From a virus (taxonomy: Duplodnaviria; Heunggongvirae; Uroviricota; Caudoviricetes): a DNA stretch of 15,129 nt. Shown piece after piece: positions 1 to 15,129 of this stretch. A program made the translations under genes and the position numbers. The DNA lies in IMG/VR virus record IMGVR_UViG_2545824713_000012; one strand, 5' to 3'. Positions within the stretch are counted from its first letter, which is position 1. Each line of letters opens with the position of its first letter. The notes beneath the pieces were generated by a model. That model ran no database searches, had not been told where the DNA came from, and was given only the letters and a program-made list of their open reading frames with translations.

Positions 1-1284
1 TTACTTCTTCGCCTCTGCAACCACTTTACTACCCACGCCGCGGTTATTGTATTCCCACATGCGGTTGTAGTTAGTGTCATTCAGATTGCGCTGTATTTCG
101 TCGTTATCATCTACGCTGCCGGTATTACCCGCAAACGGACGATTAGAGATCACCGCATCGGCCCACGGTTTAGCCGTGTTAAAACCTTCGTTGATGGCGC
201 TATCACGGATCACCACCTGACCGTTGGTATTGGCATCAACATCCAGCGAGCGGCCCAGTTGCGCCACGCCATCACCGGAAGCATTGAAACGGCTGTTTAC
301 AGCGAGGAAACCGTAGTAAATGTTGGACAGCGTTGCCGGTGCAAACACATACGCTTCTTGCTGAGTACGTGAGTTCACCACGCGGAATTCGGTGTTATCG
401 AACACCACTGCGCCGCGACCAGAAACGATATCCACATCCCCTTCAATGTAGCTGTTGGTCACCAGCGTACGCGGCTGACGATTCGTTTCCAGACGGTTCT
501 GCACACCGCTGTTGGTGACAAAGAAGGTGTTCTGACGACCGAGAATGTTCACGTTGTTAATCTGTACCTGGTCACCATCAGTACGCAGTGCCACCGCCGG
601 ATGGTTACCCGCATCTACGCTATCGCCCAGCGTGTTTTCGATGGTCAGGTTTTGCAGTTGCAGGCCATTGTTTTGTGACCAGAAGACCGCTGAACAGAGA
701 ACACCGATACTGTTGCTGCGTTTGCTCTGGCAGCTATCGTACATATACCACGCTGGTTTACCTGGCATATATTTGCCGCGCGGGTTGACGTCGTGACGCC
801 AGTCGGCAGGGCTCATGCCCCCATCAAGGGAAAGCCCAATCTTCACATCAATCGGTTTTTCACCTGTACCGTACAGAGTAATTCCACCCGGAGCGGCAGG
901 AACATATACCGTTCCCTGATACTCACCTGGCATCACGGCAATATACTGGCGCTTGTTGGTACGCTTGATAATTGCCGCATCTACCGCCGCCTGAATCGTG
1001 GTATGCGTTACACCTTGAGTACCCGCCGGGCCGACAACAAAGTCAGGTTGCGCAGGCAGGGTAATCGGGGAAGGATTCCACGCTGCAGCACCTGGTGTCA
1101 GGGATGCAAAATAGTGTTGAGCATCGAAATTCTGCGCTTCTTTTGCCGACAGAATCGGGCGAGAAGAGGTACCAGGCGCGGTTTGATCAGAAGGACGTTG
1201 ATCGGGTGGTGTTGAGCTACAGGCGGTCAGCGTCACGCCAAAAGCCAATGCCAGCGCCAGACGGGAAACTGAAAATGTGTTCAC
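1..1284 (-). CDS. ybhC: YbhC, putative outer-membrane lipoprotein (pectinesterase-like fold / acyl-CoA thioesterase family); host gene flanking attB(lambda)
   Basis: 427-aa ORF starting MNTFSVSRLALALAFGVTLTAC (signal peptide plus lipobox LTAC); recognised from memory as E. coli YbhC; position 1-3 is the stop codon, so the CDS is complete. Confidence 0.9.
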   Translation of the reverse strand: MNTFSVSRLALALAFGVTLTACSSTPPDQRPSDQTAPGTSSRPILSAKEAQNFDAQHYFASLTPGAAAWNPSPITLPAQPDFVVGPAGTQGVTHTTIQAAVDAAIIKRTNKRQYIAVMPGEYQGTVYVPAAPGGITLYGTGEKPIDVKIGLSLDGGMSPADWRHDVNPRGKYMPGKPAWYMYDSCQSKRSNSIGVLCSAVFWSQNNGLQLQNLTIENTLGDSVDAGNHPAVALRTDGDQVQINNVNILGRQNTFFVTNSGVQNRLETNRQPRTLVTNSYIEGDVDIVSGRGAVVFDNTEFRVVNSRTQQEAYVFAPATLSNIYYGFLAVNSRFNASGDGVAQLGRSLDVDANTNGQVVIRDSAINEGFNTAKPWADAVISNRPFAGNTGSVDDNDEIQRNLNDTNYNRMWEYNNRGVGSKVVAEAKK

Positions 1285-4751: not shown

Positions 4752-4912
4752 ACAGCTCCCCGTTTATTATTTATCTCCTCAGCCAGCCGCTGTGCTTTCA
4801 GGGGATTTCGGATAACAGAAAGGCCGGGAAATACCCAGCCTCGCTTCGTAACGGAGTAGACGAAAGTGATCGTGCCTACGCGGATATTATCGTGAGGATG
4901 TTTCATCGCCAT
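4724..4912 (-). CDS. Lambda Orf60a homolog
   Basis: [58 protein letters not shown]...; the lambda-length product would start at the second Met (4906). Confidence 0.8.
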
Positions 4913-5583
4913 TGCTCCCCAAATACAAAACCAATTTCAGCCAGTGCCTCGTCCATTTTTTCGATGAACTCCGGCACCATCTCGTCAAAACTCGCCATGT
5001 AATTTTCATCCCGCTCAACCACGACATAATGCAGGCCTTCACGCTTCATTCGTGGGTCATAGTTGGCAAAGTACCAGGCATCTTTTCGCGTCACCCACAT
5101 GCTGTACTGCACCTGGGCCATGTAAGCTGACTTTATGGCCTCGAAACCACCGAGCCGGAATTTCATGAAATCCCGGGAGGTAAACGGGCATTTCAGTTCA
5201 AGGCCGTTGCCGTCACTGCATAAACCATCGGGAGAGCAGGCGGTGCGCATACTTTCGTCGCGATAGATGATCGGGGATTCAGTAACATTCACGCCGGAAG
5301 TAAACTCAAACAGGGCTCTGGCGTCGTTCTCGTACTGTTTTCCCCAGGCCAGCGCCTTAGCATTAACTTCCGGAGCCACACCGGTGCAAACCTCAGCCAG
5401 CAGGGTGTGGAAGTAGGACATTTTCATGTCAGGCCACTTCTTTCCTGAGCGGGGCTTTGCTATCACGTTGTGAACTTCTGAAGCGGTGATGACGCCGAGC
5501 CGTAATTTGTGCCATGCATCATCCCCCTGTTCGACAGCTCTCACGTCGATCCCGGTACGCTGCAGGATAATGTCCGGTGTCAT
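4903..5583 (-). CDS. exo: Lambda exonuclease (Red alpha), 5'-3' dsDNA exonuclease
   Basis: 226-aa [72 protein letters not shown]... matches lambda Exo; ATGA overlap with bet. Confidence 0.97.
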
Positions 5584-6365
5584 GCTGCCACCTTCTGCTC
5601 AGTGGCTTTCTGTTTCAGGAATCCAAGAGCTTTCACTGCTTCGGCCTGTGTCAGTTCTGACGATGCGCGAATGTCGCGGCGAAATATCTGGGAACAGAGC
5701 GGCAATAAGTCGTCATCCCATGTTTTATCCAGGGCGATCAGCAGAGTGTTAATCTCCTGCATGGTTTCATCGTTAACCGGAGTGATGTCGCGTTCCGGCT
5801 GACGTTCTGCAGTGTATGCAGTATTTTCGACAATGCGCTCGGCTTCATCCTTGTCATAGATACCAGCAAATCCGAAGGCCAGACGGGCACACTGAATCAT
5901 GGCTTTATGCCGTAACATCCGTTTGGGATGCGACTGCCACGGCCCCGTAATTTCTCTGCCTTCGCGAGTTTTGAATGGTTCGCGGCGGCATTCATCCATC
6001 CATTCGGTAACGCAGATCGGATGATTACGGTCCTTGCGGTAAATCCGGCATGTACAGGATTCATTGTCCTGCTCAAAGTCCATGCCATCAAACTGCTGGT
6101 TTTCATTGATGATGCGGGACCAGCCATCAACGCCCACCACCGGAACGATGCCGTTCTGCTTATCAGGGAAGGCGTAAATTTCTTTCGTCCACGGATTAAG
6201 GCCGTACTGGTTGGCGACGATCAACAATGCGATGAACTGCGCATCGCTGGCATCACCTTTAAATGCCGTCTGGCGAAGAGTGGTGATCAGTTCCTGTGGG
6301 TCGACAGAATCCATGCCGACACGTTCAGCCAGCTTCCCTGCCAGCGTTGCGAGTGCTGTACTCAT
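5580..6365 (-). CDS. bet: Lambda Bet (Red beta) single-strand annealing protein
   Basis: 261-aa [71 protein letters not shown]... matches lambda Bet. Confidence 0.97.
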
Positions 6366-6370
6366 CCGTT

Positions 6371-6667
6371 TTATACCTCTGAATCAATATCAACCTGGTG
6401 GCGGGCAATAGTTTCAACCATGTACCGTATGTGTTCTGCCATGCGTTCCTGAAACTCAACATCGTCATCAAACGCACGGGTAATGGCTTTTTTGCTGGCC
6501 CCGTGGCGTTGCAAATGATCGATGCATAGCGATTCAAACAGGTGCTGGGGCAGGCCTTTTTCCATGTCGTCTGCCAGTTCTGCCTCTTTCTCTTCACGGG
6601 CGATCTGCTGGTAGTGACGCGCCCAGCTCTGAGCCTCAAGACGATCCTGAATGTAATAAGCGTTCAT
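6371..6667 (-). CDS. gam: Gam (RecBCD inhibitor), short 98-aa form only
   Basis: [60 protein letters not shown]... matches lambda Gam; strong SD AGGAG 8 nt upstream; in-frame TAA 19 codons upstream with no start codon in between. Confidence 0.93.
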
Positions 6668-6743: not shown

Positions 6744-7034
6744 TTAGTGATTCAGGCCGTTACCGCGTCCGTCGAGAAAAACTTCCACGAGCAAATCACG
6801 GGTATAAGTGCGCTCGATGCCGCGATGCAGATAAAGCCGTCCGCGTAAATTAGCTGATGCAGTCCAGGTACCATCTTTGTGTTTGACCAGCATTCCTGGC
6901 ATGACCGCACCTCGATTAACGGTCTGCGTTCCGTAATGTTGATGAACCATAAAAACTCCTGCCCGTAAGCTGGGCTGCTGAACATATAAAGACTTCTGCG
7001 CGTATTCAGGCGGTGGATGGCCGCCGGTTGTCAT
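6744..7034 (-). CDS. Hypothetical protein, first ORF of the leftward early operon (occupies the lambda N/cIII/kil position; not N-like)
   Basis: 96-aa ORF MTTGGHPPPEYAQKSLYVQQPSLRAGVFMVHQHYGTQTVNRGAVMPGMLVKHKDGTWTASANLRGRLYLHRGIERTYTRDLLVEVFLDGRGNGLNH; no family recognised; no arginine-rich N-terminal motif; its stop coincides with the point where lambda-like gam-upstream sequence begins. Confidence 0.5.
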   Translation of the reverse strand: MTTGGHPPPEYAQKSLYVQQPSLRAGVFMVHQHYGTQTVNRGAVMPGMLVKHKDGTWTASANLRGRLYLHRGIERTYTRDLLVEVFLDGRGNGLNH

Positions 7035-7227
7035 AACTAAGCCGCCTCGTTGAAGCGACTAAGGTATGAAATGTTGAGTTAATTTCAGCTGGTCACACCG
7101 ACGTTCACGCGTCCGTTTCACCCCTCGCACTCCCCGAAGCCTGCTGAAATTCAAACTGCGGATCTAAGCGGTCATCGCAACGGTGAATCAGGTAGTTGCC
7201 GTATCGTTGTGTTGTTGCGATGAACTT

Positions 7228-7256
7228 ATTTAAAACTATAGTTGTTTTATCGTCAA
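7228..7256 (-). promoter_or_regulatory. PL-like early leftward promoter (-35 TTGACG, 17-nt spacer, -10 TTAAAT) overlapping operator repeats
   Basis: Minus strand GTTGTTGACGATAAAACAACTATAGTTTTAAAT is nearly colinear with the PR sequence GTTGTTGACTAAAAACAACCATAGTTTTAATCT at 8280-8312. Confidence 0.5.
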
Positions 7257-7390
7257 CAACAAAAGTTGTTTTATTGGTTGTTTTAGATATAACTGGTTGT
7301 ATTTAGGATGGATTTATTTTGTGACTTGAATCGCATAGCGATAACTGAAGCGAGGTTATGGTGGTTTTTTTAACGGTGTGTGTGATGAGG

Positions 7391-7423
7391 GGAGGGCAAA
7401 AGAAAACCCGGCACGGTGACCGG
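7391..7423 (-). terminator. Putative intrinsic terminator downstream of the repressor gene
   Basis: Minus strand CCCGG-tcaccgtg-CCGGG followed by TTTTCTTTTG; about 120 nt past the repressor stop. Confidence 0.45.
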
Positions 7424-7545
7424 GATTCTTACGCCGTTAGGTAAAGATATTATTGCGGTGGCTTAATATTACTACCTAGAGCAAAGATAGGAATTAGTTC
7501 TTTACTGAATGAGCACAATGCCCAGTTGATAATTTTTAATTGGTA

Positions 7546-8235
7546 CTACCCATGCTTCCTATATGTCTGCGGCATGCTCCCAATAACCTTACCGAAGATG
7601 AACACCCGGTTCATCTCGTCTTTCTCGATCGGGTCCCACGGTGAGTAGCTTTTGTTATCAGAGATGACCAGCAGCTTATTCTTCATCATTTGCAGGCGCT
7701 TTACATGGGCTGTGTCGTCGTACAGAAACGCATAGATACCATCACCGTCGAAAGATTTAACTGTGATATCAACGAACAGCAGATCACCTGGTTCGATCGT
7801 TCCTGACATGCTGTCACCACGCACGTTAATGATGCGGATATTTTCCGCCTTCCTACCATCGAACATGTGACGAGCATCGTCAAACGAGTACTCAACCGAG
7901 CGTAGAACTTCTACAAACTCACGGTTGATGACTCCCGGCCCAGCACTGACTTCTATATCAAGAACGTCAATCTTGAAGTATTTGGAATGGCTGACAGTTG
8001 ATTGTATTGGTTGCACTGTACTGTCTGACATATTTCCAACGCCAGAAGATAACCATTCTGCGCGCACACCCAAAGCGTTCGCGATCTCCACGATTTTAGT
8101 TGTTTGATTAGCTTTCCCTGTTTCGATTTTCTGAATAGCAGCCTGGCTAACCCCGACCAAATCCCCAAGCGCCTTTTGTGTAAGGCCTCGCGCTAATCTG
8201 GCTTCTTTAAGTCTTTCTGAGAGTGTTGTTTTCAT
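7546..8235 (-). CDS. CI-like prophage repressor (N-terminal HTH_XRE, C-terminal S24 LexA-type autopeptidase)
   Basis: MKTTLSERLKEARLARGLTQKALGDLVGVSQAAIQKIETGK... HTH; Ala-Gly site in VSAGPG; catalytic Ser in RGDSMSG and Lys in HVKRL. I prefer the ATG at 8235 (229 aa) over the ORF-track start at 8301 because the extra 22 codons would overlap the PR -35/operator. Confidence 0.85.
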   Translation of the reverse strand: MKTTLSERLKEARLARGLTQKALGDLVGVSQAAIQKIETGKANQTTKIVEIANALGVRAEWLSSGVGNMSDSTVQPIQSTVSHSKYFKIDVLDIEVSAGPGVINREFVEVLRSVEYSFDDARHMFDGRKAENIRIINVRGDSMSGTIEPGDLLFVDITVKSFDGDGIYAFLYDDTAHVKRLQMMKNKLLVISDNKSYSPWDPIEKDEMNRVFIFGKVIGSMPQTYRKHG

Positions 8236-8277
8236 AGTCCAAATGTACAACCAAGGTTTTATTCCATCAAACGAAAA

Positions 8278-8300
8278 TGGTTGTTGACTAAAAACAACCA
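8278..8300. promoter_or_regulatory. Candidate OR operator: 23-bp palindrome TGGTTGTT-N7-AACAACCA overlapping the PR -35
   Basis: Perfect 8-bp inverted arms; related half-sites ACAACCA/TGGTTGT recur at 8247-8253, 8324-8339 and in the PL region (7275-7281, 7294-7300). Confidence 0.5.
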
Positions 8301-8312
8301 TAGTTTTAATCT
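8284..8312 (+). promoter_or_regulatory. PR-like early rightward promoter (-35 TTGACT, 17-nt spacer, -10 TAATCT)
   Basis: Consensus-like sigma70 elements about 28 nt upstream of the cro-like ATG, which has SD GGAGG at 8330-8334. Confidence 0.6.
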
Positions 8313-8339
8313 TGATTCAAATTAACCACGGAGGTTGTT

Positions 8340-8570
8340 ATGAACCCAGCTATCAAAACAGCGATCAATATCGTTGGTTCACAAAAGAAACTGGGCGCTG
8401 CTTGCGAAGTTTCACAGCAGGCCGTCTATAAGTGGCTTCACAACAAAGCAAAGGTATCCCCTGAACATGTCGGCAGCATTGTTACGGCTACTGGTGGAGT
8501 AGTGAAGGCATACCAGATTCGCCCGGATCTTCCGAAGTTGTTTCCACACACCGAAAAGAACGCAGCTTAA
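8340..8570 (+). CDS. Cro-like HTH regulator (YdaS family)
   Basis: 76-aa ORF MNPAIKTAINIVGSQKKLGAACEVSQQAVYKWLHNKAKVSPEHVGSIVTATGGVVKAYQIRPDLPKLF; HTH plus the C-terminal RPD motif I associate with Rac YdaS; divergent from the repressor across the PR/operator region. Confidence 0.8.
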   Translation: MNPAIKTAINIVGSQKKLGAACEVSQQAVYKWLHNKAKVSPEHVGSIVTATGGVVKAYQIRPDLPKLFPHTEKNAA

Positions 8571-8582
8571 ATTTCCATTTCA

Positions 8583-8595
8583 CGCTCTTTAACAA
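8583..8595 (+). promoter_or_regulatory. boxA-like element CGCTCTTTAACAA (rrn-consensus type) in the cro-ydaT intergenic region
   Basis: 12/13 match to rrn boxA TGCTCTTTAACAA as remembered; no convincing boxB hairpin seen after it. Confidence 0.35.
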
Positions 8596-8639
8596 TAAGC
8601 AATCAACTTAACAGTCAATTCAAACTAAAGGAGTCAATT

Positions 8640-9179
8640 ATGCAACCACTTACATACCAACAGACTAGCGGATTTAGCCCGACTGCGGTGATAAATCGTT
8701 CTCAAACAAAACAGGTGCCAGGCCACGAAAAAATCCGTGATGCCGTCCGCGCCTGGTCGGCTGTAGATAATCAGGATGTCGTTGCCACACTCATTGTGAA
8801 TGAGTATCGGGAGCAGGGCGGCGGCACCATCGATTTCCCTGATGATGTCAGCCGTGCACGCCAGAAGCTGTTCCGCTTCCTCGATAACAAATTCGATTCT
8901 GAAAAATACCGAAATAATGTGCGTGAACTGACCCCGGCAATTCTGGCGGTACTACCGCTGGAATATCGCGGTTACCTGGTTGAGCAGGATAGCTTCATGG
9001 CTAGGTTGGCTGAAATGGAAAAGGAACTCAGTGAGGCAAAACAGGCTGTCATTCTCAACGCACCACGCCACCAGAAACTGAAGGAAATTAGTGAAGGTAT
9101 TGTGTCGATGTTTCGTGTGGACCCAGATCTGGCTGGTCCATTGATGGCGATGGTTACTACCATGCTGGGGGCGATATGA
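8640..9179 (+). CDS. YdaT-family protein (Rac prophage YdaT-like, in the cII position)
   Basis: 179-aa ORF; segments LIVNEYREQGGGTIDFP and LTPAILAVLPLEYRGYL resemble Rac YdaT (EEYLRQGGGELPL, KLIPAILAILPRELRHR) from memory; strong SD AAGGAG upstream. Confidence 0.75.
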   Translation: MQPLTYQQTSGFSPTAVINRSQTKQVPGHEKIRDAVRAWSAVDNQDVVATLIVNEYREQGGGTIDFPDDVSRARQKLFRFLDNKFDSEKYRNNVRELTPAILAVLPLEYRGYLVEQDSFMARLAEMEKELSEAKQAVILNAPRHQKLKEISEGIVSMFRVDPDLAGPLMAMVTTMLGAI

Positions 9180-9265
9180 CAGGTTCAGAAATGGCGAAAG
9201 CCGGTCTGCTGGAACAGAACCGACTTTCAGGTGCAAATCGTAACACACTCATTGCGGGAGGAATT

Positions 9266-10195
9266 ATGGCAAACACTGCTGAGATATTCAATTTTCCAGT
9301 GCCGGATGCGGCACAAAAGGAGCCGCGCGTGGCAGATCTCGATGATGGTTATACGCGCATTGCAAATGAGTTGCTGGAAGCTGTGATGCTGGCCGGATTA
9401 ACACAGCACCAGCTTCTGGTCTTCCTGGCTGTCATGCGCAAAACATATGGCTTTAATAAAAAACTGGATTGGGTGAGCAACGAGCAACTTTCCGAGTTGA
9501 CCGGGATATTGCCGCACAAGTGTTCTGCTGCAAAAAGTGTTCTGGTAAAGCGTGGGATTTTTATTCAGAGTGGGCGGAATATCGGCATTAATAATGTGGT
9601 CAGTGAATGGTCAACATTACCCGAATCAGGTAAGAAAAATAAAGTTTACCTGAAAGAGGTAAATTTACCTGAATCAGGTAAGAAAAGTTTACCCAAATCA
9701 GGTAAAGGCGTTTACCCGAATCAGGTAAACACAAAAGACAAACTAACAAAAGACAATATAAAACCTTTTTCGTCCGAGAATTCTGGCGAATCCTCTGACC
9801 AGCCAGAAAACGACTTTCCTTTGGAGAAACTGGATGCTGCAATTCAGAGCGGCAGCAAGTGGGGGACAGCAGAAGACCTGACCGCCGCAGAGTGGATGTT
9901 TAACATGGTGAAGACCATCGCGCCCTCAGCCAGAAAACCGAATTTTGCAGGGTGGGCTAACGATATCCGCCTGATGCGTGAACGTGACGGACGTAACCAC
10001 CGCGACATGTGCGTGCTGTTCCGCTGGGCATGCCAGGACAACTTCTGGTCCGGTAACGTGCTGAGTCCGGCCAAACTCCGCGACAAGTGGACCCAACTCG
10101 AAATCAACCGTAACAAGCAACAGGCTGGCGTGACAACCGGAAAATCAAAACTCGACCTGACAAACACTGACTGGATTTACGGGGTGGATTTATGA
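9266..10195 (+). CDS. O: Lambda O-type replication initiator
   Basis: MANTAEIFNFPVPDAAQKEPRVADLDDGYTRIANELLEA... aligns with lambda O N-terminus (MTNTAKILNFGRG...VADLDDGYARLSNMLLEA); C-terminal third is nearly identical to lambda O; SD GGGAGG before the ATG at 9266; the ORF-track start at 9176 is an upstream in-frame extension. Confidence 0.93.
   Translation: MANTAEIFNFPVPDAAQKEPRVADLDDGYTRIANELLEAVMLAGLTQHQLLVFLAVMRKTYGFNKKLDWVSNEQLSELTGILPHKCSAAKSVLVKRGIFIQSGRNIGINNVVSEWSTLPESGKKNKVYLKEVNLPESGKKSLPKSGKGVYPNQVNTKDKLTKDNIKPFSSENSGESSDQPENDFPLEKLDAAIQSGSKWGTAEDLTAAEWMFNMVKTIAPSARKPNFAGWANDIRLMRERDGRNHRDMCVLFRWACQDNFWSGNVLSPAKLRDKWTQLEINRNKQQAGVTTGKSKLDLTNTDWIYGVDL
9617..9773. repeat. Replication origin inside O: five 17-19-bp palindromic iterons (TTTACC-N7-GGTAAA) followed by an A/T-rich tract
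   Basis: Iterons at 9617-9633, 9645-9663, 9664-9682, 9688-9706, 9711-9729 (e.g. TTTACCCGAATCAGGTAAA), then ACACAAAAGACAAACTAACAAAAGACAATATAAAACCTTTTT; same organisation as lambda ori but different iteron sequence. Confidence 0.75.
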
Positions 10196-10893
10196 AAAAC
10201 ATCGCCGCACAGATGGTTAACTTTGACCGTGAGCAGATGCGCCGGATCGCCAACAACATGCCGGAACAGTACGACGAAAAGCCGCAGGTACAGCAGGTAG
10301 CGCAGATCATCAACGGTGTGTTCAGCCAGTTACTGGCAACTTTCCCGGCGAGCCTGGCTAACCGTGACCAGAATGAACTGAACGAAATCCGCCGCCAGTG
10401 GGTTCTGGCTTTCTGGGAAAACGGGATCACCACAATGGAACAGGTTAACGCTGGAATGCGCGTAGCCCGTCGGCAGAATCGACCATTCCTGCCATCACCC
10501 GGGCAGTTTGTCGCCTGGTGCCGGGAAGAAGCATCCGTTACCGCCGGGCTGCCAAACGCCAGCGAGCTGGTTGATATGGTTTACGAGTATTGCCGGAAGC
10601 GCGGGCTGTATCCGGATGCAGAGTCTTATCCGTGGAAATCAAACGCGCACTACTGGCTGGTTACCAACCTGTATCAGAACATGCGGGCCAATGCGTTGAC
10701 TGACGCGGAATTACGGCGCAAGGCTGCCGATGAACTGTCCTGTATGACCGCACGAATTAACCGTGGTGAGGCTATACCTGAACCAGTAAAACAACTTCCT
10801 GTCATGGGCGGTAGACCTCTAAATCGTGCACAGGCTCTGGCGAAGATCGCAGAAATCAAAGCTAAGTTTGGGCTGAAAGGAGCAAGGGTATGA
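10192..10893 (+). CDS. P: Lambda P replication protein (DnaB helicase loader)
   Basis: 233-aa ORF MKNIAAQMVNFDREQMRRIANNMPEQYDEKPQVQQVAQIINGVFSQLLATFPASLANRDQNE... near-identical to lambda P; ATGA overlap with O. Confidence 0.95.
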   Translation: MKNIAAQMVNFDREQMRRIANNMPEQYDEKPQVQQVAQIINGVFSQLLATFPASLANRDQNELNEIRRQWVLAFWENGITTMEQVNAGMRVARRQNRPFLPSPGQFVAWCREEASVTAGLPNASELVDMVYEYCRKRGLYPDAESYPWKSNAHYWLVTNLYQNMRANALTDAELRRKAADELSCMTARINRGEAIPEPVKQLPVMGGRPLNRAQALAKIAEIKAKFGLKGARV

Positions 10894-11192: not shown

Positions 11193-11259
11193 TGAAACAG
11201 GTGAGTTGAGTTCAAACTGTAGTACAATTCTCTCCAGTTTGAACAGGAAAGAATATGCT

Positions 11260-11592
11260 ATGAATCCTTATATTTATCTTGGTGGTGCAATACTTGCAGA
11301 GGTCATTGGTACAACCTTAATGAAGTTTTCAGAAGGTTTTACACGGTTATGGCCATCTGTTGGTACAATTATTTGTTATTGTGCATCATTCTGGTTATTA
11401 GCTCAGACGCTGGCTTATATTCCTACAGGGATTGCTTATGCTATCTGGTCAGGAGTCGGTATTGTCCTGATTAGCTTACTATCATGGGGATTTTTCGGCC
11501 AACGGTTGGACCTGCCAGCCATTATAGGCATGATGTTGATTTGTGCCGGTGTGTTGGTTATTAATTTATTGTCACGAAGCACACCACATTAA
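11260..11592 (+). CDS. emrE: EmrE small multidrug resistance (SMR) efflux transporter
   Basis: 110-aa product MNPYIYLGGAILAEVIGTTLMKFSEGFTRLWPSVGTIICYCASFWLLAQTLAYIPTGIAYAIWSGVGIVLISLLSWGFFGQRLDLPAIIGMMLICAGVL... matches E. coli EmrE; the ORF-track start at 11206 is an upstream extension; SD AGGA before 11260. Confidence 0.9.
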   Translation: MNPYIYLGGAILAEVIGTTLMKFSEGFTRLWPSVGTIICYCASFWLLAQTLAYIPTGIAYAIWSGVGIVLISLLSWGFFGQRLDLPAIIGMMLICAGVLVINLLSRSTPH

Positions 11593-11622
11593 AAATAATT
11601 TGTTTTTAAACGACTAAAATAT

Positions 11623-11660
11623 GGAGGCTCGTATATTTATATGGGCCTCGTTTTATGCTT
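11623..11660 (+). terminator. Possible imperfect terminator hairpin after emrE
   Basis: GAGGC...GCCTC stem with a long AT loop followed by GTTTTATGCTTTTTG; weak. Confidence 0.3.
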
Positions 11661-11847
11661 TTTGTTAATGTCTTTAGTTTTTATTCATTCTTTTGTGCTT
11701 TCAAGATTATGGTGTAAGAAAATTGCAATACGATTATTGTTGTATATTCAAGATAATGTGACCTTAATTGTCTTTTTAAATAAAAATTAAACAAAAATCA
11801 TATCTCACCACTAAGGTTTATAAAAGCATACTTTAGCAGGTGTCACC

Positions 11848-13374
11848 ATGAAAAAAGCCATAGCATATATGCGATTTTCATCACCAGGTCAGATGTCTGG
11901 TGATTCATTAAACCGCCAGAGAAGGCTTATTACTGAATGGCTAAAGGTAAATAGTGATTATTACCTTGATACCGTAACGTATGAAGATTTGGGGTTAAGC
12001 GCATTCAATGGAAAGCATGCACAATCAGGAGCTTTTTCGGAATTTTTAGATGCTATAGAACATGGTTATATATTGCCAGGGACTACATTGTTAGTTGAAA
12101 GTCTGGACAGACTTTCAAGAGAAAAAGTCGGTGAAGCGATTGAGCGTCTGAAATTGATTTTGAATCACGGTATTGATGTTATAACTCTTTGCGATAATAC
12201 AGTCTATAATATTGACTCATTGAATGAGCCATATTCATTAATAAAAGCCATACTTATAGCACAAAGGGCAAATGAAGAAAGCGAGATAAAGTCAAGTCGG
12301 GTTAAATTATCATGGAAGAAAAAACGGCAGGATGCACTGGAGTCAGGCACGATTATGACGGCGTCTTGTCCGAGATGGCTCTCATTGGATGACAAAAGAA
12401 CGGCTTTTGTTCCAGACCCCGACAGGGTGAAAACTATTGAGCTAATTTTTAAACTCAGGATGGAAAGGCGCTCATTGAATGCAATAGCCAAGTATTTAAA
12501 TGATCATGCTGTAAAGAATTTCTCAGGAAAAGAAAGTGCATGGGGACCTTCTGTAATTGAAAAATTATTAGCGAATAAAGCTCTGATAGGTATATGCGTA
12601 CCTTCATATCGTGCAAGAGGTAAAGGAATAAGTGAAATCGCTGGCTATTATCCCAGAGTCATATCAGATGATTTGTTTTACGCTGTGCAGGAAATTCGGT
12701 TGGCACCTTTTGGTATTAGCAATAGTAGCAAAAATCCTATGTTGATAAATCTACTTCGAACAGTTATGAAGTGCGAGGCTTGTGGTAATACCATGATTGT
12801 TCATGCGGTATCTGGAAGTTTGCATGGCTATTATGTTTGTCCGATGAGAAGACTGCATCGATGTGACAGGCCATCAATAAAGAGAGATTTGGTTGATTAT
12901 AATATCATTAATGAGTTGCTTTTTAATTGTAGTAAAATCCAACCAGTTGAAAACAAGAAAGATGCTAATGAAACTTTAGAGTTGAAAATTATTGAGCTCC
13001 AGATGAAAATTAATAATTTAATTGCTGCATTATCTGTTGCGCCTGAAGTTACCGCTATAGCAGAAAAAATCAGAGTATTAGATAAGGAATTACGAAGGGC
13101 TTCTGTATCATTAAAAACTTTGAAGAGTAAAGCGGTGAGTTCACTTGGTGATTTTCATGCTATTGACTTAACCAGTAAAAATGGGCGAGAGCTATGTCGT
13201 ACACTTGCCTATAAAACATTCGAAAAAATCATAATCAATACAGATAATAAAACCTGTGATATCTATTTTATGAATGGCATTGTTTTTAAACACTATCCTT
13301 TAATGAAAACAATATCTGCCCAGCAGGCGATAAGTACTCTCAAATATATGGTTGATGGTGAGGTTTATTTTTGA
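11848..13374 (+). CDS. ybcK: Large serine recombinase (YbcK family; N-terminal resolvase/invertase catalytic domain, recombinase and zinc-ribbon domains)
   Basis: 508-aa ORF MKKAIAYMRFSSPGQMSGDSLNRQRRLITEWLK... with catalytic Ser in the YMRFSS motif; matches DLP12 YbcK as remembered; SD AGGTG upstream; AT-rich. Confidence 0.85.
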   Translation: MKKAIAYMRFSSPGQMSGDSLNRQRRLITEWLKVNSDYYLDTVTYEDLGLSAFNGKHAQSGAFSEFLDAIEHGYILPGTTLLVESLDRLSREKVGEAIERLKLILNHGIDVITLCDNTVYNIDSLNEPYSLIKAILIAQRANEESEIKSSRVKLSWKKKRQDALESGTIMTASCPRWLSLDDKRTAFVPDPDRVKTIELIFKLRMERRSLNAIAKYLNDHAVKNFSGKESAWGPSVIEKLLANKALIGICVPSYRARGKGISEIAGYYPRVISDDLFYAVQEIRLAPFGISNSSKNPMLINLLRTVMKCEACGNTMIVHAVSGSLHGYYVCPMRRLHRCDRPSIKRDLVDYNIINELLFNCSKIQPVENKKDANETLELKIIELQMKINNLIAALSVAPEVTAIAEKIRVLDKELRRASVSLKTLKSKAVSSLGDFHAIDLTSKNGRELCRTLAYKTFEKIIINTDNKTCDIYFMNGIVFKHYPLMKTISAQQAISTLKYMVDGEVYF

Positions 13375-14704: not shown

Positions 14705-15031
14705 ATGACTAAAAATACTCGTTTTTCCCCCGAAGTCCGTCAACGGGCAGTCCGTATGGTTCTGGAAAGTCAGAGCGAATATGACTCACAATGGGCGACA
14801 ATTTGTTCCATTGCTCCAAAGATTGGCTGTACGCCGGAGACTCTGCGTGTCTGGGTTCGCCAGCATGAGCGGGATACCGGGGGCGGTGATGGAGGGCTCA
14901 CCACCGCTGAACGTCAGCGTCTGAAAGAGCTGGAACGTGAAAATCGTGAACTGCGCCGCAGTAACGATATCCTTCGCCAGGCTTCCGCTTATTTTGCGAA
15001 GGCGGAGTTCGACCGCCTCTGGAAAAAATGA
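14705..15031 (+). CDS. IS3-family transposase OrfA (HTH DNA-binding subunit)
   Basis: 108-aa [111 protein letters not shown]. Confidence 0.9.
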
Positions 15032-15129
15032 TGCCACTGCTGGATAAGCTGCGTGAGCAGTACGGGGTCGGACCGCTATGCAGCGAACTGCATATTGCCC
15101 CGTCAACGTATTACCACTGTCAGCAACAG
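15027..15129 (+). CDS. IS3-family transposase OrfB (DDE catalytic subunit), 5' partial within window
   Basis: -1 frame relative to orfA; [34 protein letters not shown]...; overlaps the orfA stop across an A-rich slippery stretch (GGAAAAAATGATG). Confidence 0.8.

Follow-up and report, generated by a model that had tools for sequence, protein, structure and literature searches.

A lambdoid immunity region, common in Escherichia coli, with a 434-type repressor and predicted 14-bp operators

The DNA analysed here (the window) is a stretch of 15,129 nucleotides from a virus of the Caudoviricetes (IMG/VR record IMGVR_UViG_2545824713_000012), and corresponds to the left-hand portion of a lambda-like prophage, inserted beside the host gene ybhC. 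The region under study, positions 7035–8570, is the lysis/lysogeny switch of this prophage. It contains a cI repressor gene, a divergent cro gene, the leftward and rightward promoters (PL and PR), a predicted promoter for repressor maintenance (PRM), and two groups of 14-bp repeats which, as argued below, most likely correspond to the left (OL) and right (OR) operators of the repressor.

The repressor and Cro

The cI gene is located on the minus strand (7546–8235) and encodes a protein of 229 amino acids, whose true start is the ATG at 8235, and not that of the 251-amino-acid open reading frame (ORF) called mechanically. This protein combines an N-terminal helix-turn-helix (HTH) domain (Pfam HTH_3, 5e-13) with a C-terminal Peptidase_S24 domain (1.5e-18), and is encoded divergently from cro (plus strand, from 8340), the intergenic gap being 104 bp. 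These data agree with the initial annotation of the sequence, which had described a CI-like S24 repressor in a lambdoid immunity region. When compared with the PDB using phmmer, residues 5–68 of the N-terminal domain match the 434 repressor (1per/1r69, E = 4e-9), and this domain also matches 434 Cro (E = 3e-7), while the cI protein shows a further match to UmuD' (1e-4); no lambda cI chain was retrieved from this database with the cI query at E <= 1e-3. The recognition helix of cI is SQAAIQK (residues 30–36).

The translation of cI contains Ala98-Gly99, Ser142 (in the motif GDSM) and Lys179 (in VKRL), motifs that are those of the LexA-type self-cleaving repressors. Thus, the protein is predicted to carry the Ala-Gly cleavage site and the Ser/Lys dyad of the S24 family.

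The cro gene (8340–8570, plus strand) encodes a protein of 76 amino acids belonging to the YdaS/Cro family (Pfam YdaS_toxin, 4e-17; P22_Cro, 8e-5), with the helix SQQAVYK, which has the S-Q...K pattern in common with the recognition helix of cI. It is followed by a cII analogue of the YdaT family (8640–9179, plus strand; Pfam YdaT_toxin, 8.5e-30). In prophage CP-933P, YdaS has been shown experimentally to be a Cro analogue, and YdaT activates a promoter similar to that for repressor establishment, PRE (PMC8630535).

Promoters and the likeness between PL and PR

Promoters were assigned by inspection of the hexamers, by conservation and by analogy. PR (8284–8312, plus strand) is formed by the -35 hexamer TTGACT (8284–8289), a 17-bp spacer and the -10 hexamer TAATCT (8307–8312), conserved in relatives as T-A-x-T-C-T, with a predicted start at about 8319. 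The predicted PRM (8242–8270, minus strand) is formed by TTGATG (8270–8265), a 17-bp spacer and TACATT (8247–8242); in relatives, the TTG of its -35 and the TAnATT of its -10 are invariant and the flanks vary. Transcription from this promoter is predicted to start at the first base of the cI start codon (the A at 8235) or close to it, which would give rise to a leaderless cI mRNA. PL (7228–7256, minus strand) is formed by TTGACG (7256–7251), a 17-bp spacer and TTAAAT (7233–7228), with a predicted start at about 7221; an alternative register has the -10 hexamer TAAATA and an 18-bp spacer. Its assignment is supported by the alignment with PR and by the homology of its -10/start region to the annotated PL of HK022.

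The initial annotation had pointed out that the two promoters are near-duplicates, and this is borne out by the comparison of PR (8280–8309) with PL (7259–7230), in which 28 of the 31 aligned columns are identical, with two mismatches and one 1-nt indel. The longest inverted match allowing at most one mismatch spans 19 nt (7230–7248 against 8291–8309), and exceeds everything obtained in 200 shuffles of both regions (mean 9.8, maximum 14).

Operators in the two control regions

The repeats of the GTTGTT/AACAAC type that had been described as clustered at 7241–7300 were located in this interval as four copies of GTTGT (7241, 7265, 7277 and 7296) and one of ACAAC (7256). What recurs at OL as well as at OR is a dyad of 14 bp, ACAAC-N4-GTTGT. 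Searching the window for it with at most one mismatch gave five matches in the 15 kb (starting at 7232, 7256, 8247, 8294 and 8325), against 0.48 expected; all of them are inside the two control regions, and none of 200 shuffles reaches five.

At the left, OL1 (AAAACTATAGTTGT, 7232–7245) is located within the PL spacer and overlaps its -10 hexamer, and OL2 (ACAACAAAAGTTGT, 7256–7269), a perfect dyad, abuts the PL -35. At the right, OR3 (ACAACCAAGGTTTT, 8247–8260) lies within the spacer of the predicted PRM, and OR1 (ACAACCATAGTTTT, 8294–8307) within the PR spacer, touching the -10. These four sites are supported by motif search and by conservation. OR2 (ACGAAAATGGTTGT, 8271–8284), which has two mismatches to the dyad consensus, fills the gap between OR3 and OR1; on one side it adjoins the -35 hexamer of PRM, and on the other its last base is also the first of the PR -35. 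The starts of the OR sites (8247/8271/8294) are thus separated by 24 and 23 bp, and those of the OL pair (7232/7256) by 24 bp. The placement of the end of OR2 on the PR -35, with OR1 in the spacer, is the arrangement of lambda. In the ten half-sites, base 1 is A in all ten, base 2 is C in seven and A in three, base 3 is A in nine, base 4 is A in ten and base 5 is C in nine, followed by C or T and by A. Taking these data together, repressor dimers are predicted to bind, most likely, the ACAAC-N4-GTTGT 14-mers through the half-site A-C/A-A-A-C-C/T-A.

The initial annotation had placed the operator elsewhere, in a 23-bp palindrome, TGGTTGTT-N7-AACAACCA, overlapping the PR -35. The palindrome itself exists as described: it is exact at 8278–8300, covers TTGACT (8284–8289) and extends to 9+7+9 at 8277–8301. 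Its arms of 9 nt, its perfection and its position over the -35, together with its rarity (0.6 palindromes with such arms are expected per window by chance), would speak for a single dimer bound to TGGTTGT-N9-ACAACCA centred on the PR -35, with the other GTTGT repeats as weaker copies. However, we consider this very unlikely. The palindrome is present as a single copy, since no second one was found in either control region with up to three mismatches, and the equivalent halves at PL are N10 apart against N9 at PR, whereas the spacing inside the 14-mers is invariant in every relative; it was therefore rejected as a recurring operator unit. Moreover, its half-sites point outward (TTGT...ACAA), whereas homologous domains read the opposite, 434-type orientation (ACAA...TTGT), and their centres are about 16 bp apart, so that they face opposite sides of the DNA helix. 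OR3 and OL2 each form a full 14-mer dyad and lack an N9 palindrome partner, and the relatives HK639 and Stx1a have three discrete 14-mers. The 23-bp palindrome spans the PR -35 region and is bounded by half-sites of the two adjacent operators, the right one of OR2 and the left one of OR1. Thus, the half-site proposed in the first description (TGGTTGT/ACAACCA) was right, and it is the unit into which the halves are assembled that has to be changed, from the palindrome to the recurring 14-bp dyads.

Conservation and co-variation in related loci

Relatives were collected by a pattern scan of IMG/VR, which yielded 120 loci, and 41 distinct OR sequences were kept in register. Among these, positions 1–6 and 9–14 of OR3 are conserved at 98–100%, and its central pair at 54–88%, while the inter-site spacers that flank OR3 vary. 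Within OR1, variation is confined to positions 6, 8 and 9, and within OL1 and OL2 to positions 6–9. The two OL sites keep the 24-bp start-to-start spacing in 91 of 92 loci, despite an OL-OR distance that ranges between 1044 and 3091 bp.

Conservation of the operators is accompanied by that of the recognition helix. The helix GVSQAAIQKIETG is unchanged in those repressors having the same operators, even when they are 44% identical overall or carry a different C-terminal domain. In HK639 (locus L130) and Stx1a_EH2115 (L128), the helix is SQPAIQK, and three ATAAC-N4-GTTAT 14-mers occupy the same positions in the cI-cro gap. Judging from these sequences, HK639/Stx1a would represent a natural variant of the system of the window, differing in specificity by one residue and one base. 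Nothing supports the 14-mer model more strongly than the fact that helix and half-site co-vary while the 14-bp frame is constant.

The same observations bear on the proposal that the repeats are not operators of the repressor, but sites for Cro only, for the YdaT-type cII analogue or for a host protein, or a trace left by the duplication of PL and PR. In favour of this, the half-sites at 7275 and 7294 are direct repeats, an arrangement that offers no symmetrical target to a dimer; in addition, both direct and inverted repeats have been noted in the operator region of CP-933P (PMC8630535). Nevertheless, the motif changes together with the repressor helix (SQAAIQK with ACAAC, SQPAIQK with ATAAC), the combination of conserved outer bases with a variable centre is the pattern of a dimer site and not that of a neutral duplication, and the positions of the repeats match the OR/OL logic of lambda. 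Taking this into account, a non-operator origin of the repeats is highly improbable, and the 14-mers are considered below as the probable repressor sites.

Two side observations were made in this set. One locus (L049; IMG/VR UViG 2795386133_000002), from a GC-rich host, encodes a distant repressor with the helix SQQAIHK, and contains dyads of the ACAAC type (ACAACCGCAGATGT) around a TTGAC -35 hexamer; because of these dyads and this repressor, the ACAAC operator type seems to reach well beyond the enterobacteria. Besides, the Klebsiella-type (type-B) relatives (e.g., L008, L015 and L023) have a conserved ORF of 67 amino acids (MSNEDEFFAEMHPQIAQ...) beside OL, on its right, oriented rightward and convergent with cI, which is absent from the window.

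Relation to known immunity systems

Several traits of a lambdoid immunity region are found together at this locus: a divergent repressor/cro pair around a short control region (about 100 bp), an HTH + S24 repressor with cleavage motifs, three related OR sites over PR and PRM, and related sites (two full OL) at PL. As in lambda, OR is tripartite and its sites start 24 and 23 bp apart, PL and PR are alike, the end of OR2 reaches into the PR -35, the PR spacer accommodates OR1, OR3 covers PRM, the cI mRNA is leaderless (predicted in the window) and the repressor has an S24 self-cleaving domain. In contrast to lambda, the operators are 14 and not 17 bp long and bear no sequence relation to those of lambda, no similarity to lambda cI is detectable in the DNA-binding domain, there are just two full OL sites, neither rexAB nor N is present, and Cro and cII belong to the YdaS and YdaT families. 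There is thus no lambda cI-type domain and no 17-bp operator of the TATCACCGC type, and the earlier claim of a specificity distinct from that of lambda holds, with no lambda cI match in the PDB and with operators that are unrelated 14-mers.

The recognition elements resemble those of 434. The DNA-binding domain is homologous to the N-terminal domain of the 434 repressor, and the operators are 14-bp dyads with outer ACAA...TTGT ends and a variable centre, like those of 434, which, as read from its annotated genome, are ACAA-N6-TTGT 14-mers. The Gln at the start of the 434 recognition helix is retained in the repressor of the window, and operator base 1 (A) is invariant; OL2 (ACAACAAAAGTTGT) fits even the 434 consensus. 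However, the 434 helix reads Q28-Q29-S30...Q33 against Q31-A32-A33...K36 here, base 5 of the half-site is in the window a conserved C, base 2 tolerates A, and each OR site has one half (TTTT or ACGA) that breaks the 434 consensus. With such a helix (Q-A-A...K) and with OR halves that violate ACAA-N6-TTGT, the locus does not belong to imm434. Besides, PR lies one operator further to the right than in 434, resulting in a lambda-like layout, and in the 434 record cI has an annotated ribosome-binding site, whereas the cI mRNA of the window is predicted to be leaderless.

Closer relatives are HK639 and the Stx1a-converting phages, whose DNA-binding domains are about 48–58% identical to that of the window and which have three OR dyads with the same placement of PR with respect to OR2 and OR1. 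They differ in the half-site (ATAAC instead of ACAAC) and in the helix (SQPAIQK instead of SQAAIQK) and, on these grounds, probably constitute heteroimmune sister groups to the type of the window. The cI of HK022 is 41% identical; in this phage, two OL sites also bracket the PL -35 with a 24-bp spacing, the N gene is lacking, and its putL type is carried by some phages with the immunity of the window. In contrast, its operators are TGAAC-N5-GTTCA 15-mers, and the window has neither a put-like sequence nor nun. Finally, CP-933P and Rac have Cro and cII analogues of the same Pfam families, but are governed by the repressors PaaR2 or RacR, which lack an S24 domain, whereas that of the window is a CI of the classical, presumably cleavable kind.

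Taking all these data into account, we propose, with a probability of roughly 0.78, that the region is a lambdoid switch in which a 434-type repressor would read 14-bp ACAAC-N4-GTTGT dyads arranged in a lambda-like layout. Several points weigh against this proposal. OR2 differs from the consensus in two bases, OL has no more than two full sites, and the orphan half-sites at 7275 and 7294 and the OR-side 14-mer at 8325 fall outside the model. The pattern used to fetch the relatives from IMG/VR fixes 8277–8288 and 8294–8298, so that conservation at these positions carries no information. As regards the promoters, a sigma-70 consensus scan of 6900–8700 called none of PL, PR and PRM, giving one chance-level match at 7215–7242; the -10 hexamers are weak, and that of PL lacks A2 or T6 depending on the register. 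In literature searches with phage names and accessions, no experiments on binding or on transcripts were found for this type of immunity, and no paper was found on PhiR34_1, IdasGreatGrand, their accessions or the specificity of the window.

Proposed operation of the switch

Homologies with other switches are the guide for binding, occupancy order, activation of PRM, transcription starts and RecA-dependent cleavage in the following proposal. In a lysogen, the repressor bound at OR1/OR2 and OL1/OL2 would shut PR and PL. The OR2-bound repressor would probably stimulate PRM, leading to the synthesis of the leaderless cI mRNA, and OR3 would probably limit PRM at high levels of repressor. The cI transcript would end at a terminator (7397–7424), and the genes that related phages carry before it would be co-transcribed with cI. 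After DNA damage, self-cleavage at Ala98-Gly99, stimulated by RecA and dependent on Ser142/Lys179, would inactivate the repressor. Later, Cro, a YdaS-family protein with a similar recognition helix, would occupy the same sites.

Additional sites and the PL leader

A candidate fourth 14-mer, with one mismatch (ACCACGGAGGTTGT, 8325–8338), overlies the Shine-Dalgarno sequence of cro, at about +7 to +20 of PR, and is kept in relatives as ACYACGGAGGTTGT. This conservation may reflect a fourth operator, or only translation signals and the ribosome-binding site. At the left, two orphan TGGTTGT half-sites in direct orientation (7275–7281 and 7294–7300) are located upstream of PL, and a weak OL3 (7287–7300, ATATAACTGGTTGT) might be formed with the distal one. 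This distal half-site lies at +31 from the start of OL2 in all three OL sequence types, although the partner half is not conserved, and the 14-mer at 8325 is likewise 31 bp from the start of OR1. A further conserved block, ATTTATTTT, follows the orphan half-sites at about 7313–7321.

PL is followed by an untranslated leader of about 190 nt (7035–7227, minus strand) without an N gene. No N-type antiterminator gene with nutL was found right after PL, there being no ORF of at least 40 amino acids from PL to 7034; N is also absent from accepted lambdoids such as HK022. No likeness to putL/putR of HK022 was detected in the window by BLAST, nor any Rfam match, in searches that did not include a structure-based one with a put covariance model. 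A pairwise alignment of the leader with HK022 putL gave patchy similarity. The idea of a put-like antiterminator in this leader was dropped as unsupported, taking into account that BLAST gave nothing significant and that folding was unremarkable (z = -1.35), though no covariance model was applied. Relatives with identical operators (L048, L075 and L006) have an HK022-type putL right after PL (95% identity), and the leader type of the window is present in 59 of 88 loci.

These features lead to a more speculative and, in our opinion, rather unlikely proposal, by which the switch would go beyond the lambda/434 paradigm through the 14-mer on the cro ribosome-binding site and the orphan half-site, each 31 bp from the start of its neighbouring operator. 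Such extra sites could serve for an extended or looped assembly of the repressor, or for translational or roadblock control of cro. Separately, and with the same reserve, a leader devoid of N and put might contain a new antitermination signal, or need none.

The first ORF of the left operon (6744–7034, minus strand) has no annotation, and encodes 96 amino acids, or 77 from an internal ATG; it has no Pfam match and its N terminus is not arginine-rich. Its 5' end and the 60 bp upstream match phage phi80 just downstream of the phi80 N gene (X13065, 85% identity), and a longer version of this ORF is annotated as 'Kil' in PhiR26_1.

The cargo slot downstream of cI

It had been stated in the first description that only a terminator-like hairpin, and no rex genes, follows the repressor, and both parts of this statement are confirmed. 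No ORF of at least 40 amino acids is contained in the 510 bp downstream of cI (7035–7545), the longest one having 36. A 28-amino-acid ORF (7358–7444) preceded by a Shine-Dalgarno-like GAGG was rejected, its start codon not being conserved in relatives. The hairpin is the cI terminator (7397–7424, minus strand), with a stem at 7424–7407, followed by TTTTCTTTT, and a T-run at 7406–7397, and folds with -21.1 kcal/mol (z = -3.64). However, the absence of rex, although true, does not distinguish this immunity region, as a known hotspot for cargo genes is simply unoccupied here.

Thus, the cI stop codon is followed, up to the terminator, by an empty slot of 120 bp (7425–7545, minus strand) that holds no ORF. 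The slot is empty, as in the window, in 23 of 92 related loci, and in the others it holds one to three genes, the terminator being kept on the far side of them. When the window is compared with relatives having the same cI allele, homology breaks immediately past the cI stop (about 7540–7550) and resumes at the terminator or shortly beyond it (about 7350–7420). The cargo therefore sits inside the cI transcription unit. Lambda rexAB occupies the same position, between cI and its terminator.

Cargo found in relatives (loci L013, L015, L022, L034, L039, L050, L081, L087, L098 and L105) includes BstA (E = 7e-122), PDC-S42, PDC-M63B, PDC-M11A, a PD-T4-6-type protein kinase, the HEC-04 ATPase, DUF7946/7947, a lipoprotein and, in a Klebsiella phage, RexA. 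A PP2C phosphatase with a partner gene, DUF3800 and HipA-like genes were also observed, and the interval from the cI stop to the terminator appears as a hypervariable cargo site. In phage BTP1, bstA has the same position, within the cI transcription unit (PMC8585504). The exact boundaries given here delimit a slot for defence genes that would be co-transcribed with cI.

Distribution and relevance

Among 5426 complete E. coli genomes, 1521 (28%) carry the segment formed by the DNA-binding domain and OR (8000–8345), at 1529 places, and 1054 carry the whole arrangement from 7035 to 8340. About one copy per genome is what homoimmune exclusion predicts, and we read it as indirect support for a function in vivo. 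In six deposited phages, on which no paper was found, the DNA-binding domain is at least 99% identical, and no classical lambdoid exceeds 61%. Thus, the specificity is not that of lambda, as the initial annotation had stated, but neither is it unique to the window. Among the lambdoid immunities of E. coli, this type probably ranks with the most frequent ones.

The switch is therefore an uncharacterised, yet very common, member of a familiar class, in which recognition of the 434 type is combined with a lambda-type layout. The established picture of the lambdoid switches is unchanged by these findings, which provide a testable operator map and a half-site consensus. They also provide a specificity series (ACAAC/SQAAIQK, ATAAC/SQPAIQK and 434 ACAA(G/T)/QQSIEQ) that could be useful for studying the diversification of HTH repressors and for predicting homo- and heteroimmunity among prophages from their sequences.

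Prophage context

The left end of the window contains a ybhC-like pectinesterase gene of the host (4–1284, minus strand), whose side is directly adjoined by a lambda-type integrase gene (1419–2489) with an Arm-DNA-binding domain, followed by an excisionase gene (2467–2685). Since the ybhC-like gene is directly beside int/xis (1–2685), the prophage can be placed at or near the lambda attachment site; a palindrome with 9-nt arms is found in the ybhC-int gap (1333–1362). The genes exo, bet and gam (4903–6667) precede the switch, and O (9176–10195) and P (10192–10893) follow it, with ren to their right.

Beyond ren (11206–13374), the genes encode an SMR transporter resembling EmrE and a large serine recombinase resembling YbcK, a cargo that we take to be the same as in DLP12, the defective prophage of K-12. 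This common cargo suggests that DLP12 is a deleted relative of the phage type of the window. With such a presumed deleted relative, with the DLP12-like cargo and with an IS3-family element at its right end, the window might be regarded as part of a cryptic prophage in which the switch would be a decayed remnant that no longer works. We give hardly any credit to this possibility, taking into account that the early genes (int, xis, exo, bet, gam, cI, cro, the cII analogue, O and P) are all intact, and that the 1.7 kb around the switch are 99.9% identical in the deposited phages PhiR34_1 and Turner. Phages with this 99.9% identical region are plaque-forming and have been propagated on MG1655. PhiR34_1 and Turner annotate the switch genes just as cI, Cro and cII.

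The IS3-family element, the start of which (14705–15129) interrupts the right arm of the prophage, contains a transposase ORF of the HTH_Tnp_1 type (14705–15031). An Rfam search of the whole window (E <= 1) gave no match in 7000–8700, its sole match being the IS3-type ALIL frameshift pseudoknot located in this element (14986–15102, 120 bits).

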